DNA of 32,000 bases from Methanocaldococcus jannaschii DSM 2661. GTDB lineage: Archaea > AGJL01 > Methanococci > Methanococcales > Methanocaldococcaceae. Each line of letters begins with the position of its first letter. Positions within the stretch are counted from its first letter, which is position 1. The notes under the pieces were generated by a model. It was not told where the DNA came from. It was given only the letters and a program-made list of their open reading frames with translations, and searched no databases. The DNA is taken from contig NC_000909.1 of assembly GCF_000091665.1 (NCBI RefSeq), forward strand, positions 880,712-912,711, written 5' to 3'. Position numbers and translations under genes: made by a program. Shown here piece by piece: positions 4,087-27,475 of this stretch.

Positions 4087-5409
4087 TTATTTAATAATTT
4101 TTATCTCTCCTTTGTCCCACTCTACCATCAATGTATCTTCATCATTATATTTTGTTAAAAATACTAATATCGCCGCTTTTGTTCCCCATCTATCAGAACC
4201 GGCTAATATATAGATGTTGTTATCATTATATGGGTTTTTTATTTTTAGTATGATTCCTCTATTGTTTCCCGGATAATTGGTAGAGATATTTACTTTCAAT
4301 AAACCTTTATCTTCAAGTTCTTTAACGATTTTATTAACTTTTGGACCTCCAATTAGAATTATGTCCTTATTAACATTTAAAGGATTAGAACTATATACAT
4401 CTACCGAACCAAGATAAATCTTTTCATGATTTTTGAGTTCTTTTCCTTTATAGAATACATGAACGGTATTATTTACCTTTACAGCATAAATTCCATCCCC
4501 TATATATGCAACATCTTTAACATCTACGGTTTTTTCTTTCCTTTTTATAACTTTAAAGAGAACATAATCTTTGTAACACTTTTCAGGTATTATGGTGTAA
4601 TTAAACAAGTATATTTCATTTCCTAAACTATCTATATTTTTATACTCAAGTTTTATTTTATCAGTGCTTATTTCTTTAACTTTAAACTCTTTATCTAATG
4701 GGTAATCTTCCCCTTCTTCAATTTTTATTGTAGAATATACTCTAAAAGTAAATCTATAACCTTTGCCAATCCTTGTGCAATTTTCATACATTAACCCTAA
4801 GGTTCCTCCTTTCATATAATAAATCTTTCCCTTAGTTAATTTAGGAGAATCCAAAACTTTCTCATTTTTGTATATATCAACAATTATAGTATTTAAATCA
4901 GAGGAAACCAACTTTACAACAACTTTATATCCATCGTATTCAAATGATTCATTTGTCAATACTTCCTTTCCATCTTTTTCTTTTAATATTACATAATTTG
5001 AAGTAATATCTTCAACTATGTAGCTTTTATTGAATAAGCTTATTTCTTCTCCCTTTTTAAGGTTTAAATATTCAATACACTCAATATCTTTATATTTCAC
5101 TTTGTTTCCGTCTCTATCAAATTTTATAATAAGATTTTTATCTCCATTTTTAATTTCAAGTTCATCTATAGATGGAATATACATAATATCGTTAATAACA
5201 ATTGTTACATTATCTCCATTGATATTTATCTCTCTTGATGAGTAAAAATTGTCCATCAAAATTTTTGCATTTTGATAATCTACCGTGGATTTATTTACAT
5301 AGATTATTGGCTCTATAGGTAGAGCATAGCTAACACTTATAACCAATAAGAGTATAAGTAAAAGTGTCCTCTTCACAATTAACCCCTCCATCATTTGTAA
5401 TCTTAACAA
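4087..5409 (-). CDS. secreted S-layer-domain-like protein
   Basis: Signal peptide (V)KRTLLLILLLVISVSYA. C-terminal IILIGGPKVNKIVKELEDKG...ILAGSDRWGTKAA resembles the conserved C-terminal module of Methanococcales S-layer proteins. Beta-rich with several N-x-S/T sequons. Probable start is GTG 5376 after GGAGGGG (alternative ATG 5394). Confidence 0.6.
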   Translation of the reverse strand: MLRLQMMEGLIVKRTLLLILLLVISVSYALPIEPIIYVNKSTVDYQNAKILMDNFYSSREININGDNVTIVINDIMYIPSIDELEIKNGDKNLIIKFDRDGNKVKYKDIECIEYLNLKKGEEISLFNKSYIVEDITSNYVILKEKDGKEVLTNESFEYDGYKVVVKLVSSDLNTIIVDIYKNEKVLDSPKLTKGKIYYMKGGTLGLMYENCTRIGKGYRFTFRVYSTIKIEEGEDYPLDKEFKVKEISTDKIKLEYKNIDSLGNEIYLFNYTIIPEKCYKDYVLFKVIKRKEKTVDVKDVAYIGDGIYAVKVNNTVHVFYKGKELKNHEKIYLGSVDVYSSNPLNVNKDIILIGGPKVNKIVKELEDKGLLKVNISTNYPGNNRGIILKIKNPYNDNNIYILAGSDRWGTKAAILVFLTKYNDEDTLMVEWDKGEIKIIK

Positions 5410-6579: not shown

Positions 6580-6724
6580 ATCTTTTTAATTTTTGTTTTA
6601 TTATTTTATTTTTATTAATTTATCCATTTAAATTAAAGAATAATAAAAACTTTTATATGTAAGTCTTTTGATAATTAAAATTTACTTAAAAAATAATATA
6701 GATTTTTTTATATAGTGGGTTTTT

Positions 6725-7507
6725 ATGCATGAGGATGTTTGGAGTTTAATTAAAGAAACAAATCATAAAACTATTCTATACTCTCATGGAATGAAAAACA
6801 GGGTTTTGTTAGGATATTTATTAAAGCTTAGGGGGAAATATAACTTTGACTTTGAGGCAGTAACGTTTATTTCAGATAGAAGTCCAAAATGGGTAAGAGA
6901 AGAGATAAAGTGGATTATGAAAGCAAATGATGTTAAACATAGATTTATTGAGTGTGGAAAATGCAAGATAAGCTTAGAAAATAATGGACATGATTATCAC
7001 GGAAGTTGTGTAGTTTGGGAGGGTATTAAAAATTTTGAGGGAGGAGTTGTAGCATCATCAATAGGAGAGCATATTAAAGATAAAGAACGATTTTTAACGT
7101 GGTGTAACGATTATAACTTATTTCCTCCTTTTATTCACTTAAATGTCTCAAGAGAAAGGCTTGTTAAAGAATTTGAAAGCTTAGATAAAAATCTAATTTC
7201 AAGTTGCTATCATGCATGTGTATTCTGCCCTATATTGTATAAACTTGGAAAAAGTTTGATAAAATCAGAGATTTTCTATAAGAAAAAGATTTTAACCGAT
7301 AATGAAAGGAAAGAACATGCTTTAAATGAATTTTATGATGCTATGAAGGAGCAAGATATTGGTAGGATGATTAATTCGGTTAAAATTTACTATAATAAGT
7401 ATATAAGAGAGTTAGATGAGCCGTATGCCGATTATATAAAGAGTAGAGATGTTGAGATGTTTGATAAATTGGTTAATAAGTGTAAAGAGTATTTAGGGGT
7501 GAAATAA
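6725..7507 (+). CDS. uncharacterised Cys-rich protein, degenerate PP-loop (PAPS-reductase-like) paralogue
   Basis: TILYSHGMKNRVLLGYLL...EAVTFISDRSPKWVREEIKWIMKAND aligns by eye with INTSFSGGKDSSVSTLL...EVIFIDTGLEFKDTIDFVKKFAKKYD of the 25781-27016 protein, but SGGKDS is replaced by SHGMKN. The C-terminal CYHACVFCP resembles GCYMCP. Its stop overlaps the next start (TAATG). Confidence 0.55.
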   Translation: MHEDVWSLIKETNHKTILYSHGMKNRVLLGYLLKLRGKYNFDFEAVTFISDRSPKWVREEIKWIMKANDVKHRFIECGKCKISLENNGHDYHGSCVVWEGIKNFEGGVVASSIGEHIKDKERFLTWCNDYNLFPPFIHLNVSRERLVKEFESLDKNLISSCYHACVFCPILYKLGKSLIKSEIFYKKKILTDNERKEHALNEFYDAMKEQDIGRMINSVKIYYNKYIRELDEPYADYIKSRDVEMFDKLVNKCKEYLGVK

Positions 7508-8559
7508 TGGGGGACGATATTTATATACCTCCAAAACCCAAACCCAAGCCAAAACCAAAACCTGAGTATAAATACGCTTTATGGTATTTTAAATACACCA
7601 ATACTTATGAGAAAAGATTTAATGGAACAGTAGGTGATTTATTAAATAGAGGGTTTAACTACGCAATTGCTTTGGAAAAGGATGAAGGTAGTGGAACTCC
7701 GGAAAGTGGAAATTTAAGAGAAGATGGTGAAAAAGATGGAAAAGAATTTGGAGAGTTTATAAATTCAGAACTCTCTGGAATTAAGTATATTGCTCAAATT
7801 CCTTATTATAAACGTGGAATGTTAGAAAAATTAAAAAATGCTTCCAAAGACAAAAAACAGATGGAATATTATATAAACCATATTTATCTGGTAAAAAGAA
7901 CATTAGAATACTGGAAGGGTTGGATTGATGGAGTTATTGAAAGTTGTGATAGCAATTTAGTAGGATTTTATTGGAATTTTGAATCTCCTGGGCAAGTAAG
8001 TTGGGGATTTATTACTGATTGGGAAATAGCACAATTATCAACATATATCAAACAAAAATCTAATGAATTGAACAGAAAATTAGAGTTTATATGGATTCCC
8101 TATATTAACGATATAGAGAATCCAGATAATAATGATATAAAACGATTATCAAAGTATTTTGACTATGTATTTGTTCAACCACACTATTATATTGCATGGA
8201 AATACTGGTGTCTCTGGAACTATGAAAAAAATGTGAGTGAAGATATAAGAGAATATTGGAAATACCAAATTAACAGATATAATGGATATTTAACTCAGGG
8301 AATAACAAAACTTATAGAGGTTCTTAATTGGATAAAAGAAATTCCTAATGGATATATAGAAATGGAAGTAGATAATAAAATTGATGAATATAAATATCAT
8401 GATTTGATAAACAAAGCATGTGATTATATTAAAGCCCGAGAGTTCTTAACTGGTAGAGATATTTGGCAAATAAGAGCATACTACTTTGACACAAATATTG
8501 AGAATGTAGATAAGGTGAGAAATGGAGCTTACGGTATAAAAGGATGTAAAAACTGGTGA
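7507..8559 (+). CDS. uncharacterised Trp/Tyr-rich protein with N-terminal (PK)5 linker; possibly carbohydrate-active TIM-barrel-like
   Basis: 350 aa with PPKPKPKPKPKP at residues 8-19 and 14 Trp by my count (e.g. GFYWNFESPG, IAWKYWCLWNY). Only a weak recollection of DUF4855-like GFYW..E patterns. Translationally coupled on both sides. Confidence 0.5.
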   Translation: MGDDIYIPPKPKPKPKPKPEYKYALWYFKYTNTYEKRFNGTVGDLLNRGFNYAIALEKDEGSGTPESGNLREDGEKDGKEFGEFINSELSGIKYIAQIPYYKRGMLEKLKNASKDKKQMEYYINHIYLVKRTLEYWKGWIDGVIESCDSNLVGFYWNFESPGQVSWGFITDWEIAQLSTYIKQKSNELNRKLEFIWIPYINDIENPDNNDIKRLSKYFDYVFVQPHYYIAWKYWCLWNYEKNVSEDIREYWKYQINRYNGYLTQGITKLIEVLNWIKEIPNGYIEMEVDNKIDEYKYHDLINKACDYIKAREFLTGRDIWQIRAYYFDTNIENVDKVRNGAYGIKGCKNW

Positions 8560-8563
8560 GATT

Positions 8564-9844
8564 ATGAAAAAATTCATTTTATTTTTAATAATTTTATTAT
8601 TTTCTATTTATTTTTTAAATGTCTCTTCAGCAGAAGTTTGTCCATTTAAGGATGGATTTATAATAATTTACCATGATATTGGTTATGATAAGCTTTTTGG
8701 ATATACTTACAACGATTCGGAGATTTTGTATTTTAATAATAAAAATTTAATGGACATAACTCCTATTTCTGACTATTATTTCCCTGAGTTGTATCATAAT
8801 ATAACATATTTTGAGTGTGGCTCAACTAATAATTTAACTATATTATCTTTTGGATATTTTTATTTCCCAAAAAATGGTGACGGAATAGTTTTTTTAGGTG
8901 TTTTAGTATACACAACAAAAAACAATAAAATAAACTACACTGAGAAAATACTGTGGGCTGATGTTTTTTATTCAGTTGATGATTTTGATATATCTCCTCC
9001 AGCATGTTCCCCTAATGAGGCATTACTTGTTTATTGTTATAAAATGAAAGCAGATTATCCAGAAAATATTCTTGTGTTAATAAATAACACCAACATAACC
9101 GAATTAAAGAAGTTTGAGGATGACGACTATTATACTACGTTCCAACATTACATATATCAACCTATATTCATCTTTACAACCTATGATTCGAAGGCAAAGA
9201 AGTTTTATATCTTAGATGGGCGTTTATCAAATACTTCATTTCCTTTGTATTCTTATTACGGTGGAAAAATCCATTTCGAAGATAACATAACTCTTCCAAA
9301 ATATGAAAATATTTCTTGGGAGTGTATGGATTTTTACAGCATAAATGGGACTTTATATATTGTTATGAAGAAACTTAATTGCTCCAATATCAATTATGCA
9401 GGTTGGTATGAAGATTATTTAAATCAGAAGCCATATCTTCTTATATGGAAAAATAAAACCATAAAAATCATAAGTAATTGCTCAAATCCATATTATTTTG
9501 TTAAAATCAAAGGAGGAGAAATTCCAATAGAAAAAAGCTATCTAAAAAAGATTTTTGGAAATAAATATGAAAGTATAAGAATTACGGATTTAGCATACAA
9601 TAACGGAATATTATTGATTGAAACCAACGAAAATCACAAACTACACTATTATATTGTAAAAAACAACTCAATAGAAGAGATAAAACTAAAAAACATTATA
9701 AAATTGTATAAAAAGAAACATAGCTTATGGGATGATATTAAAAAAGAATTAGAACCAAAAATTTATTGGGTAATACATAACTGGTATATAATAGTTTTAA
9801 TTATAGCTGGTTTGTTGTGGATGGCTATATTATGGAAAAAATAA
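8564..9844 (+). CDS. secreted, C-terminally membrane-anchored protein with many N-glycosylation sequons
   Basis: Signal peptide MKKFILFLIILLFSIYFLNVSSA, C-terminal TM helix WYIIVLIIAGLLWMAILWKK, and 15 N-x-S/T sequons by my count. GGTGAG motif overlaps the upstream stop. Confidence 0.6.
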   Translation: MKKFILFLIILLFSIYFLNVSSAEVCPFKDGFIIIYHDIGYDKLFGYTYNDSEILYFNNKNLMDITPISDYYFPELYHNITYFECGSTNNLTILSFGYFYFPKNGDGIVFLGVLVYTTKNNKINYTEKILWADVFYSVDDFDISPPACSPNEALLVYCYKMKADYPENILVLINNTNITELKKFEDDDYYTTFQHYIYQPIFIFTTYDSKAKKFYILDGRLSNTSFPLYSYYGGKIHFEDNITLPKYENISWECMDFYSINGTLYIVMKKLNCSNINYAGWYEDYLNQKPYLLIWKNKTIKIISNCSNPYYFVKIKGGEIPIEKSYLKKIFGNKYESIRITDLAYNNGILLIETNENHKLHYYIVKNNSIEEIKLKNIIKLYKKKHSLWDDIKKELEPKIYWVIHNWYIIVLIIAGLLWMAILWKK

Positions 9845-22124: not shown

Positions 22125-22355
22125 ATTAAAATTAGCCATTTCGGAATGGAAATCTGTCTAAAATGTAGTGTTTCCATTTAAATGTCTCAGTTAATTAAAT
22201 CAGACCGATTCGGAATGGAAATAAGGACTGGGATGGATTTGCATTTAATAAAGATATGTAATTAAAATCAGACTAATTCGGGATGAAAACTAAGTTTCTT
22301 TCTGTCTCCTTAGCTTCCAATATTGATTAAAATCAGCTTTTAAGAGGTTAAACGT
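22125..22355 (+). CRISPR. degenerate four-repeat CRISPR remnant (ATTAAAATCAGACCG.TTCGGAATGGAAAT family)
   Basis: Repeats at 22125-22153, 22194-22222, 22261-22290 and a half-decayed copy at 22326-22355. Periods are 69/67/65 nt; unique spacers are 40/38/35 nt. The repeat resembles the Methanocaldococcus short-repeat family as I recall it. Confidence 0.8.
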
Positions 22356-25780: not shown

Positions 25781-27016
25781 TTACTTTTTTTCTTTATTTT
25801 CTAATATTTTCTTTAATTCTTTCATTTTTGGTGGTAATTCTTTCCATCTCCAAAATCCTCTTAAAATCTCATCCTCATCATAACCAAATCTTTTTAAAAC
25901 ATCAACCCATTTATTAAACAACTCTGGATAAAGTTCTTTAACTCTCAAAAATTCAGCATTTAAAGCAGCTGGACACATATAACAACCAATTCTTTCAAAT
26001 CCTTTATCATAGAGTTCATTATAGATAACATCATTTAGATATATCCAGCTCCAGACATCAGTTCCTCTCCAATCCAATATTGGGAAGATGTTTATCTGAT
26101 TTTCAATAAAGCCACTTTTTCTTTCATAAGTTAATTTTTCTCTTGTAAAGCTTTCATATCTCCTTGAGCCATCAATTGTATAAACTCTTTTATATTTCTT
26201 TAAATACTCTTTTAACGGCTCTAATTTGCAAACACTATTACACCATCTATAATCTTTTGTAGGAATACCTTCTTTTTCCAGATATTCCCAAAAGTTTTTG
26301 CCTTTTAAAACAACTAAGTTTAAATCATACTTTTTAGCAAATTTTTTTACAAAGTCTATAGTATCTTTAAATTCTAAGCCGGTATCTATAAAGATGACTT
26401 CTAAATCATCTATAACTTTGTTAGCTAATAAAGTAGAGACAGAAGAATCCTTCCCACCACTAAAAGAGGTATTTATAGCATAATTCTTATTTTTACACAT
26501 TTCATAGTATTTTTTTATGATTGATAGGGATTTTTTCTCTAATTTTTCAATCCTATCTTTGTTTTTTCTTAGATAATCTTCAATCTTTTCAAATCTAAGC
26601 TCTTTCTTTAAAGTTAAGTCCTTAATTTTTATTGTATCTCCTTTTTTAACTGCTACGCCAACATAATTTCCTACTTCAACACCAACATAATCATTCTCAT
26701 TGATATCTTTTAGCTCTTCAGCATTTTCAATTAAATCAACTGGCACTTTTTTGCCTTTTAGCTTTCTCTTTGTTGGTTTTATTTTAATTTTTGGTTCTTC
26801 TATTAAATAATAAGAGGCATAAGGATGAAACTTCCAATCCAAATCAATTAAATCAAATTCTAAGATGCCTATACACTCTCCATTAATAAAAACTTTTTTT
26901 CTGTAATCTAAGCCACCAATCTTCTTTAAAATAATTGCTAAATCATAGGAGAAGTTTTTATTGAGCAGTTTGTTTAAAACATCTATCTCAAACTTAGAGG
27001 CAAATTTATCGTCCAT
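25781..27016 (-). CDS. PAPS/APS reductase-family PP-loop protein with extra N-terminal domain
   Basis: SFSGGKDSSV PP-loop, IFIDTG, a C-terminal GCYMCP cysteine motif, and an N-terminal extension of about 170 aa. Confidence 0.8.
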   Translation of the reverse strand: MDDKFASKFEIDVLNKLLNKNFSYDLAIILKKIGGLDYRKKVFINGECIGILEFDLIDLDWKFHPYASYYLIEEPKIKIKPTKRKLKGKKVPVDLIENAEELKDINENDYVGVEVGNYVGVAVKKGDTIKIKDLTLKKELRFEKIEDYLRKNKDRIEKLEKKSLSIIKKYYEMCKNKNYAINTSFSGGKDSSVSTLLANKVIDDLEVIFIDTGLEFKDTIDFVKKFAKKYDLNLVVLKGKNFWEYLEKEGIPTKDYRWCNSVCKLEPLKEYLKKYKRVYTIDGSRRYESFTREKLTYERKSGFIENQINIFPILDWRGTDVWSWIYLNDVIYNELYDKGFERIGCYMCPAALNAEFLRVKELYPELFNKWVDVLKRFGYDEDEILRGFWRWKELPPKMKELKKILENKEKK

Positions 27017-27025
27017 TTTATCACT

Positions 27026-27475
27026 TTAAATTTCAATAATTTCTAAGAAATCTACTCTTTTAAAATCATCGTCAAAGCTACATATTTTATTGATTTTATA
27101 AAACTTACATGTTGAGCAGATTAATGCGTCATTTGGTAATAAACAATATTTTTTAATAATTTCTCTTGAAATTTTAACAATCTCACTATTTAAATCTAAT
27201 ATTTGGAAAATTGAAAAAAGCTCAAAAACTATATCTAAATCTAACGATTTTAAAATCTCTGGATGTTTTTTAATGTCATAATGCCTTTTATTTGTTGTAG
27301 CCCTTATATAAAAGAACAAAACTTCTGATATTACTATAGGATTTATAAATCCACAGATTTCTTTATTCTCTACTTTTTCAATTAGTTTTTTAGCTTCAAC
27401 TTTACCACATAAGTGATATATTAATATATTAGAATCAAAAAATATTTTATTCTCCTCCATTTTCAATCTCCTCAA
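27026..27475 (-). CDS. vapC: PIN-domain toxin (VapC type)
   Basis: IFFDSNILI N-terminal acidic motif, a C-terminal SFDDDF, and about 145 aa. The probable start at ATG 27460 overlaps the vapB stop by 14 nt. Confidence 0.75.
   Translation of the reverse strand: MRRLKMEENKIFFDSNILIYHLCGKVEAKKLIEKVENKEICGFINPIVISEVLFFYIRATTNKRHYDIKKHPEILKSLDLDIVFELFSIFQILDLNSEIVKISREIIKKYCLLPNDALICSTCKFYKINKICSFDDDFKRVDFLEIIEI

Follow-up and report, generated by a model that had tools for sequence, protein, structure and literature searches.

Exported adhesins paired with a dedicated cytoplasmic modifying enzyme are known from HMW1A with the N-glycosyltransferase HMW1C and from AIDA-I with Aah. DUF4855 (PF16147), a protein family without known function, is mostly bacterial (Bacteroides, Clostridium, Paenibacillus), and some of its members are annotated as lipoproteins. 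The subject here is a three-gene cassette on the forward strand of Methanocaldococcus jannaschii DSM 2661, within a 32,000-nucleotide (nt) stretch of contig NC_000909.1 (positions 880,712 to 912,711) referred to as the window. Its best explanation, to which we assign an even chance, is a conserved two-gene module made of a glycan enzyme (gene 2) and a variable surface glycoprotein (here gene 3), with gene 1 as an accessory and all three in one operon.

In Bacteroides, the DUF4855 gene BT0442 belongs to a glycan-utilisation locus and adjoins a glycoside hydrolase (GH) family 89 gene and SusC/D (PMC10434189), DUF4855 being there merely a gene name. The gene 2 family resembles PF16147 in that 10 of the 15 aligned members match the profile at E ≤ 0.01, one of them above the gathering score. 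The archaeal proteins differ in lacking a signal peptide or lipobox and in being shorter, the match spanning only profile positions 162-294 of 313, and their genes are coupled with one for a surface protein, not with uptake genes of the SusC/D type. Like members of clan GH-A (e.g. GH5), gene 2 is predicted to form a (β/α)8 barrel with one Glu at strand 4 and another at strand 7, as in the retaining GH-A arrangement, but the Asn-Glu pair of that clan is absent. The best structural matches are GH18 enzymes, a likeness to the GH18/GH85 type, whereas gene 2 carries GFYWNFE and not DxxDxDxE. Also reminiscent of TIM-barrel glycosidases are the Q-P-H-Y-Y motif that follows strand 6 and a face rich in aromatic residues, although the structural similarity is weak (E ~1e-3, template modelling (TM) score ~0.3) and there is no significant sequence match to a solved structure. 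As with HMW1A/HMW1C and AIDA-I/Aah, the gene of a putative cytoplasmic carbohydrate-active enzyme sits beside that of an exported, sequon-rich surface protein. HMW1C and Aah, however, are bacterial glycosyltransferases of the GT-B or GT41 type, whereas gene 2 is a predicted TIM barrel whose action before export would be presumptive.

Pairing and replacement of surface-protein genes

Loci were gathered by exact-protein look-ups, a scan of GTDB genomes, a metagenome scan and a plasmid database. About 20 distinct loci in Methanococcales and Thermococcaceae, including one plasmid, carry a DUF4855-like barrel gene followed on the same strand by an open reading frame (ORF) rich in N-x-S/T sequons. 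They comprise the window, Methanocaldococcus sp. FS406-22, several Methanocaldococcus-like contigs, CP104873, Thermococcaceae genomes and metagenome-assembled genomes (MAGs), and a Thermococcus peptonophilus plasmid. The partner ORF starts -16 to +55 nt from the barrel gene, has a signal-like hydrophobic N-terminus and contains 1.9-3.7 sequons per 100 aa; nearly all complete partners (272-507 aa) have a transmembrane helix at the C-terminus, followed by a basic tail. In Thermococcaceae, barrel and partner repeatedly overlap at stop and start, by 16, 11 or 1 nt.

The partners themselves fall into at least four families left unlinked by all-against-all BLAST or hhalign. Families A and B/B2 occur in Thermococcaceae, and families C, D (that of gene 3) and ‘548’ in Methanococcales; the hhalign probability between C and D is only 47 %. 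A single family for all downstream surface proteins was accordingly rejected, BLAST and hhalign joining only B with B2. No Pfam family was matched among the partners except one NosD-like β-helix in M. vulcanius, and no internal repeats were found in them. Nor is it claimed that gene 2 subtypes and partner families diversified strictly together: clustering by the unweighted pair group method with arithmetic mean was not clean, and some ORFs are frameshifted.

Gene 1 accompanies the barrel/surface pair only in Methanococcales. The order is gene 1, gene 2 and a family D gene in the window; gene 1, gene 2 and two family C genes in FS406-22; and gene 1, gene 2 and one family C gene in contigs L002, L003 and L038. 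CP104873.1 (L012, 3650-6789) has a distant barrel gene, a ‘548’-family surface-protein gene and then gene 1, and this triad is flanked by a periplasmic-binding-protein gene on one side and permease and ATPase genes on the other, in an iron/cobalamin-type ATP-binding cassette (ABC) transporter operon. Thermococcus sp. 21S7 (L001, 6001-12286) carries two tandem modules, an intact barrel with family A and a 104-aa barrel fragment with family B; the array runs from the barrel gene and a 507-aa surface protein through the 104-aa fragment to anchored, sequon-rich proteins of 436, 379 and 358 aa. Some 4-5 kb upstream of this array is an OrfB/resolvase pair of the IS605 family. On the 49-kb T. peptonophilus plasmid (NZ_CP014751.1; L052, 7001-8702), a gene labelled ‘DUF4855 domain-containing protein’ by PGAP (NCBI) overlaps a surface ORF with a signal peptide, a transmembrane anchor and 6 sequons, next to heavy-metal resistance genes. 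The annotated downstream start at 8106 on this plasmid leaves out the signal peptide.

Because gene 3 homologues stand alone elsewhere and partner families are swapped, the unit that is conserved consists of a barrel and ‘a’ surface protein. To this pair, gene 1 adds a third, lineage-specific member, and gene 3 is one of the partners that can be interchanged. The earlier note on this DNA had treated the three genes as a set that should recur together; gene 3 departs from this, being interchangeable and also found alone, and it is the pairing of barrel and surface protein that recurs. The proposal of an undescribed envelope- or glycan-related module is favoured by the conservation of this pairing in two archaeal orders.

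Comparison of the DNA reveals how partners have changed. Between the window and L002/L038, identity is 0.90-0.94 across gene 1, declines through the 5′ part of gene 2 and is ~0.4-0.6 from about nt 7650 through the third gene; close relatives keep gene 1 (about 92 % DNA identity) and have the downstream cassette replaced. Relative to FS406-22, gene 2 of the window is itself a mosaic, with an identity of 0.75, then 0.39, then 0.83. The MAG contig L031 (1-3560), which has the downstream aminotransferase in common with the window, reads as the end of gene 1, a hybrid gene 2, a 65-aa fragment, a family B2 protein and a gene 3 homologue. Its gene 2 joins a Methanocaldococcus-type N-terminus to a Thermococcaceae-type barrel (64 % to the homologue P0010) and is truncated at 213 aa. 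The 65-aa piece comes from the second Thermococcaceae barrel subtype, the B2 protein is 64 % identical to one in a Thermococcaceae MAG, and the GC content of the inserted part is 0.35 against 0.27 in the flanks. The hybrid recurs in a second assembly, L047, where genes 1 and 2 are broken at further points. The chromosomal site varies as well: hisC/aminotransferase in the window and L031, MatE/Tsr3 in FS406-22 and L002, and the ABC-transporter operon in CP104873. Since the surface partner is interchangeable and cassettes are replaced, the locus would generate surface diversity.

Marks of mobility were sought around these copies. No integrase, capsid, replication or transfer gene lies beside any chromosomal copy, and the FS406-22 copy is outside the pT26-2 element of that genome. 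At the window, flanking repeats amount to nothing beyond chance AT-rich matches, with no att-like repeats, and the sole tRNA lies ~3.7 kb upstream of the cassette. An island origin, which had been suggested for a check by composition, is not borne out, as the GC content of the cassette (0.26-0.30) is close to the window mean (0.31). A defence-system or phage origin was likewise rejected after PADLOC, PHROGs, a phage database and a BFVD structural search returned no significant match.

The predicted barrel and its surface partner

The family alignment of gene 2 reaches down to 28 % identity. Its member above the PF16147 gathering score is the homologue P0009, which scores 46.5 bits (cut-off 27) and aligns with 100 % of gene 2 at 44 % identity (E 7e-70); no other family was matched. 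By sequence relationship, gene 2 is thus placed as a divergent DUF4855 member. Where the earlier note could assign none of the three proteins to a named family, this holds for genes 1 and 3 and gives way for gene 2.

The AlphaFold2 (AF2) model of gene 2 (predicted local distance difference test score (pLDDT) 76.7, predicted TM score 0.78) shows eight alternating strand/helix units, and the top 50 Foldseek matches in the PDB are almost all TIM barrels. The best are GH18 chitinases and an endo-β-N-acetylglucosaminidase, at the weak scores given above, and the matches also include the non-catalytic chitinase-like lectins CHI3L1 and SPS-40. Profile searches yielded no significant solved relative, the best being a GH5 mannanase (E 0.054), and a wider profile nothing relevant. 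The predicted barrel fold is secure, and together with the DUF4855 homologues it upholds the glycoside-hydrolase-like TIM barrel previously surmised from composition. In that respect the protein is Trp- and Tyr-rich, its 14 Trp (4.0 %, as had been counted) giving the highest Trp content among window ORFs of at least 150 aa. No signal peptide, transmembrane segment or hydrophobic N-terminus occurs in any member of the gene 2 family.

Invariant in the 15 sequences are E159, E285, E287, D289, W196, P198, Q224, Y227 and Y228. In the model and alignment, the invariant residues fall at the C-terminal ends of predicted strands or immediately behind them. E159 follows strand 4 (residues 151-156), W196 and P198 belong to strand 5, Q224, Y227 and Y228 come after strand 6, and the IEMEVD segment falls on strand 7 (282-287); Y326, likewise listed as invariant, is on strand 8. 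Glu159 is a candidate general acid/base, with one of Glu285, Glu287 and Asp289 as a candidate nucleophile. The GH18 DxxDxDxE signature is absent from gene 2, strand 4 reading VGFYWNFE with the final Glu alone in common, and no Glyco_hydro_18 Pfam match was obtained.

Ahead of the barrel, a conserved N-terminal MGGDIYIP peptide is followed by the (PK)5 linker, which the earlier note had read correctly and which is encoded by an imperfect hexanucleotide repeat (Table 1). The homologues carry between 1 and 5 PK copies, which suggests in-frame slippage.

Gene 3 encodes, by its predicted features, a type I membrane surface protein that is probably N-glycosylated. The signal peptide, the transmembrane anchor and the 15 sequons described earlier were all recovered. 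The sequons exceed those in shuffled sequences (3.6 ± 1.8; 0/2000 shuffles reach 15), with one in the signal peptide and 14 in the ectodomain, and 10 are kept in every aligned homologue. Neither a Pfam or NCBIfam family nor the S-layer models TIGR01564 and PF05124 are matched. The five homologues come from M. vulcanius, FS406-22, Methanotorris formicicus and two MAG entries, all Methanocaldococcus or Methanotorris. In M. vulcanius M7 (L005, 5135-11993), the homologue lies within a cluster of four surface-protein genes. A gene for a 289-aa polytopic membrane protein precedes it and overlaps its start; downstream come the NosD-like β-helix protein, with 434 aa and 18 sequons, and a further two surface proteins with anchors.

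Gene 1, operon anatomy and neighbouring genes

The protein of gene 1 has no signal peptide and no transmembrane segment. It matches nothing in Pfam, NCBIfam, PADLOC or PDB sequences, the last searched both with the single protein and with a profile, and its best PHROG match is not significant (E 0.25). Only four homologues were found among 5.8 billion clustered proteins (67-91 % identity), from Methanocaldococcus sp. FS406-22, a ‘Methanococcaceae’ multi-species entry and two metagenomic sequences, and a profile search of 1.84 billion representatives returned nothing beyond fragments of gene 1's own family. On these searches it appears to be a narrow, lineage-restricted orphan.

Its AF2 model is of low confidence (pLDDT 51.5) and predicts an N-terminal β-loop-α-β-α-β unit, with a helical bundle in the C-terminal third. 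The SHGMKN loop, located where the earlier note had put it, occupies the site at which the SGGxDS of PP-loop enzymes would sit and does not match that consensus; in the metagenomic homologue L003, His replaces the first Ser (HHGMKN). The motif CYHACVFCP, also confirmed, spans residues 161-169. Seven Cys are invariant in the homologue alignment (80, 95, 127, 161, 165, 168 and 253), and the CX3CX2C motif is a probable metal or iron-sulfur (Fe-S) ligand set. This spacing is also that of radical S-adenosylmethionine (SAM) enzymes, an assignment that was rejected since the motif begins at residue 161 of 260, ~90 mostly helical residues lie beyond it, and neither a Radical_SAM Pfam match nor a corresponding fold match was obtained.

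Foldseek, which had been proposed for all models, supported the barrel of gene 2 and gave for gene 1 a sub-threshold top match to the PP-loop enzyme LarE (E 4.5e-3, TM score 0.31), followed by further HUP-class folds: pantothenate synthetase, universal stress protein (USP), TilS and NAD synthetase. Because the model is poor, the LarE match is merely a hint, weakly suggesting a PP-loop/HUP-like, nucleotide-binding Rossmann-like N-terminal domain. Gene 1 is similar to PP-loop ATP pyrophosphatases (PF01507, LarE, TtuA) in its predicted β-loop-α start, and its Cys cluster recalls the Fe-S-dependent members. It differs from them in having SHGMKN for SGGxDS and in the lack of any hidden Markov model, profile-profile or pairwise signal.

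The earlier note had aligned gene 1 by eye with the 3′-phosphoadenosine 5′-phosphosulfate (PAPS)/APS-reductase-like ORF at 25781-27016, and this alignment did not survive. The ORF does encode a PAPS_reduct protein (Pfam E 2.2e-59), whereas gene 1 has no PAPS_reduct (PF01507) match and no BLASTP similarity to it. The hhalign probability is 0.19 % against the single ORF sequence and 0.16 % against an 11-sequence PAPS-reductase alignment drawing on 10 phage and archaeal-virus homologues. Local and global alignments reach z = 0.5-0.6 relative to shuffles, compared with z = 13-15 for control phage PAPS reductases at ~25 % identity. Both proteins contain a CxxCP motif, but the motif order differs, WC following VASS in gene 1 and preceding GSR in the PAPS domain. 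Gene 1 is not detectably related in sequence to the PAPS reductase of the window. The PAPS_reduct protein itself has an extra N-terminal region of ~170 aa without a Pfam match, and its gene lies directly downstream of a PIN-domain gene (27026-27475, E 2.8e-24), both on the - strand. Its phage homologues often stand beside DNA methyltransferase, ParB-like nuclease or terminase genes; a scan of viral contigs found no PAPS homologues.

The coordinates of the cassette are collected in Table 1. The three packed ORFs, their TAATG overlap and their 4-nt gap are as described in the earlier note, and by this anatomy they form one operon with translational coupling, as had been proposed. There is no room for promoters between them. 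The Shine-Dalgarno-like element at the second junction is present, slightly to the left of the GGTGAG that had been placed at 8557-8563. The spacer upstream of gene 1 is AT-rich and 145 nt long. Its candidate TATA box would put the transcript start ~35-40 nt before the gene 1 ATG, and a second TTTATATA at 6707-6714 is too near that ATG for a TATA box.

Table 1. Features of the three-gene cassette, numbered by position in the window
Feature	Position	Strand	Length	Remarks
Gene 1	6725..7507	+	260 aa	ORF
Gene 2	7507..8559	+	350 aa	ORF
Gene 3	8564..9844	+	426 aa	ORF
Candidate archaeal TATA box TTTATATG	6652..6659	+		read from sequence
SHGMKN loop, gene 1	6782..6799	+		residues 20-25, between predicted strand 1 and helix 1
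C161-x3-C165-x2-C168 motif CYHACVFC, gene 1	7205..7228	+		invariant in alignment
Shine-Dalgarno-like AGGGGTGA	7495-7502	+		within gene 1 end, ahead of gene 2
TAATG stop/start overlap, gene 1/gene 2	7505-7509	+		
Imperfect (CCAAAA)5.3 hexanucleotide repeat	7531..7562	+		encodes (PK)5 linker
Codon of Glu159, GFYWNFE motif	7981..7983	+		just after predicted strand 4; invariant in 15 members
Codons of Glu285, Glu287, Asp289 (IEMEVD)	8359..8373	+		predicted strand 7; all invariant
GGTGA, Shine-Dalgarno-like element over gene 2 stop	8555-8559	+		gene 2 TGA at 8557-8559
Gene 2/gene 3 junction	8555..8566	+		GGTGA, 4-nt gap, gene 3 ATG at 8564
Gene 3 signal peptide	8564-8632	+		residues 1-23; Sec-type, MKKFILFLIILLFSIYFLNVSSA then EV
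Gene 3 C-terminal transmembrane helix	9782-9835	+		residues 407-424, then KK tail

The flanking genes are those previously recognised, a hisC-like class I/II aminotransferase upstream (Pfam Aminotran_1_2, E 2.6e-67) and a convergent class V aminotransferase downstream (E 1.2e-29). The closest relatives of the window, whose GC content is ~31 %, are Methanocaldococcus genomes and vent metagenomes. In its gene order, with hisC, three unassigned genes, the aminotransferase, transaldolase and MCM, it would correspond to the MJ0955-MJ0961 region of M. jannaschii. Just upstream of hisC lies the ORF at 4087-5409 (- strand, 440 aa), which has a signal peptide, an S-layer C-terminal domain (S_layer_C PF05124, E 6.7e-13; TIGR01564, E 4.7e-7) and 1.8 sequons per 100 aa, so that the cassette adjoins another envelope gene. 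Elsewhere in the window, a single CRISPR-DR13 direct-repeat match (22194-22222, + strand; 40.8 bits against a gathering score of 37) occurs with no array reported around it.

Competing readings and significance

As an enzyme of an envelope module, gene 2, which looks catalytically intact, would most likely be a retaining glycosidase or transglycosylase using Glu159 together with Glu285 or Glu287. It would act from the cytoplasmic side on a glycan, or a lipid-linked glycan precursor, linked with the partner protein, and the rapidly diversifying partner would then be exported and anchored in the envelope. Given its apparent cytoplasmic location, candidate substrates would be a glycan precursor linked to lipid, a pool of glycans in the cytoplasm or a protein not yet exported. 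Recombination around or within gene 2 would swap whole downstream cassettes, also between Methanococcales and Thermococcales. Gene 1 would be an accessory confined to Methanococcales, Cys-rich and probably metal-binding, with an N-terminal domain of Rossmann-like type. A role together with gene 2 is possible, the MGGDIYIP-(PK)n tail being found only in Methanococcales proteins, i.e. only where gene 1 exists, a correlation that is confounded by phylogeny.

Several observations weigh against this module. Gene 2 carries no export signal and has no obvious access to an externally glycosylated protein, so the substrate is a guess. Its DUF4855 membership is transitive, via homologues, as the gene of the window attains no Pfam threshold and gives no PF16147 match even at E ≤ 1 (gathering threshold 27 bits). 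The weak Foldseek scores of the model do not fix a glycosidase clan, and in two homologues Tyr takes the place of N157 in the N-x-E motif. In M. vulcanius and Methanotorris formicicus, the gene 3 homologues are not accompanied by genes 1 and 2. Two near-identical metagenome contigs, L048 and L049, contain a DUF4855-like gene that is more distant, comes from an organism of low GC content and has no surface-protein neighbour, being followed by small acidic proteins without a signal peptide; these contigs are the sole exceptions to the pairing. Genes 1 and 2 look fragmented in the lineage of L031 and L047, where the breaks could be decay or assembly error. The literature on DUF4855 and the likely locus tags yielded one incidental mention of the family, nothing on the locus tags, and no expression, glycoproteomic or biochemical data.

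Four other explanations are less well supported. Gene 2 might not be an enzyme at all, but a TIM-barrel chaperone that binds carbohydrate or peptide and, before export, escorts or retains the co-translated surface protein. The overlaps of 16, 11 or 1 nt, kept across two orders, suggest matched co-production, and both the lectins among the Foldseek matches and the missing GH18 signature are in keeping with such a role. E159, E285, E287, D289 and the aromatic platform, located on the canonical catalytic face, nevertheless stay invariant in sequences as low as 28 % identity, which argues against such a role, and a common peptide-binding site is hard to picture for partners that are not recognisably homologous. 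The chaperone is unlikely. That the cassette is instead cargo of a mobile element or virus, with the surface proteins serving as envelope or exclusion proteins and the barrel as a depolymerase rather than in a host function, is rather unlikely. It would account for the plasmid copy, the variable chromosomal position between close relatives and the inter-order mosaic, and Thermococcales and Methanococcales have plasmid families and habitats in common (PMC6972569). The absence of mobility genes beside every chromosomal copy, of significant viral or defence matches and of flanking repeats, the unremarkable GC content and the location of the FS406-22 copy outside pT26-2 all speak against it.

The degenerate PP-loop paralogue envisaged for gene 1, a pseudo-enzyme that keeps the fold and Cys motif of the PAPS/APS-reductase-like protein, could draw on the predicted start of the fold with SHGMKN at the PP-loop site, on the LarE and HUP-class matches and on the common CxxCP motif. 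It is quite improbable, as every sequence and profile comparison was negative, the fold matches are unreliable at the pLDDT of the model and the motifs are not collinear. A sugar-scavenging unit, in which gene 3 would bind an external glycan and gene 2 degrade imported oligosaccharides, is suggested by the Bacteroides DUF4855 genes in polysaccharide-utilisation loci (PMC10434189). Against this, no transporter lies within the cassette at any locus, and the hypervariable partner families are unlike substrate-binding proteins. Methanocaldococcus, moreover, is an obligate H2/CO2 autotroph, and scavenging is highly improbable.

The module of glycan enzyme and surface glycoprotein can also be cast in a bolder form. 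Surface-diversifying cassettes would be horizontally exchanged between vent archaea of the two orders, with the conserved 5′ end of gene 2 as the recombination anchor; the DUF4855 enzyme, without an export signal and obligatorily co-translated with each variable surface protein, would edit or install a glycan on that protein or on its lipid-linked glycan before export, so that a glycosidase fold would do the work of the dedicated adhesin modifiers; and gene 1 would be an Fe-S- or nucleotide-dependent protein, specific to Methanococcales, that docks on the MGGDIYIP-(PK)n tail. Taken as a whole, this version is rather unlikely.

Taken singly, the components are of known kinds: a glycosidase-like TIM-barrel enzyme and anchored surface proteins rich in sequons. 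What appears undescribed is the surface-protein pairing, the archaeal DUF4855 branch, the candidate catalytic residues and the cassette exchange. Three ‘hypothetical proteins’ receive testable annotations, and the PP-loop paralogy is removed as a wrong lead. DUF4855 gains an archaeal branch, residues that are candidates for catalysis and a conserved partner in the genome. The locus emerges as a hot spot, not noticed before, at which surface proteins vary and are exchanged between orders in hyperthermophiles, and such variation bears on virus-host and cell-cell interactions at hydrothermal vents. If the enzyme does serve the adjacent glycoprotein from the cytoplasmic side, it would represent a new step in archaeal glycoprotein biogenesis.

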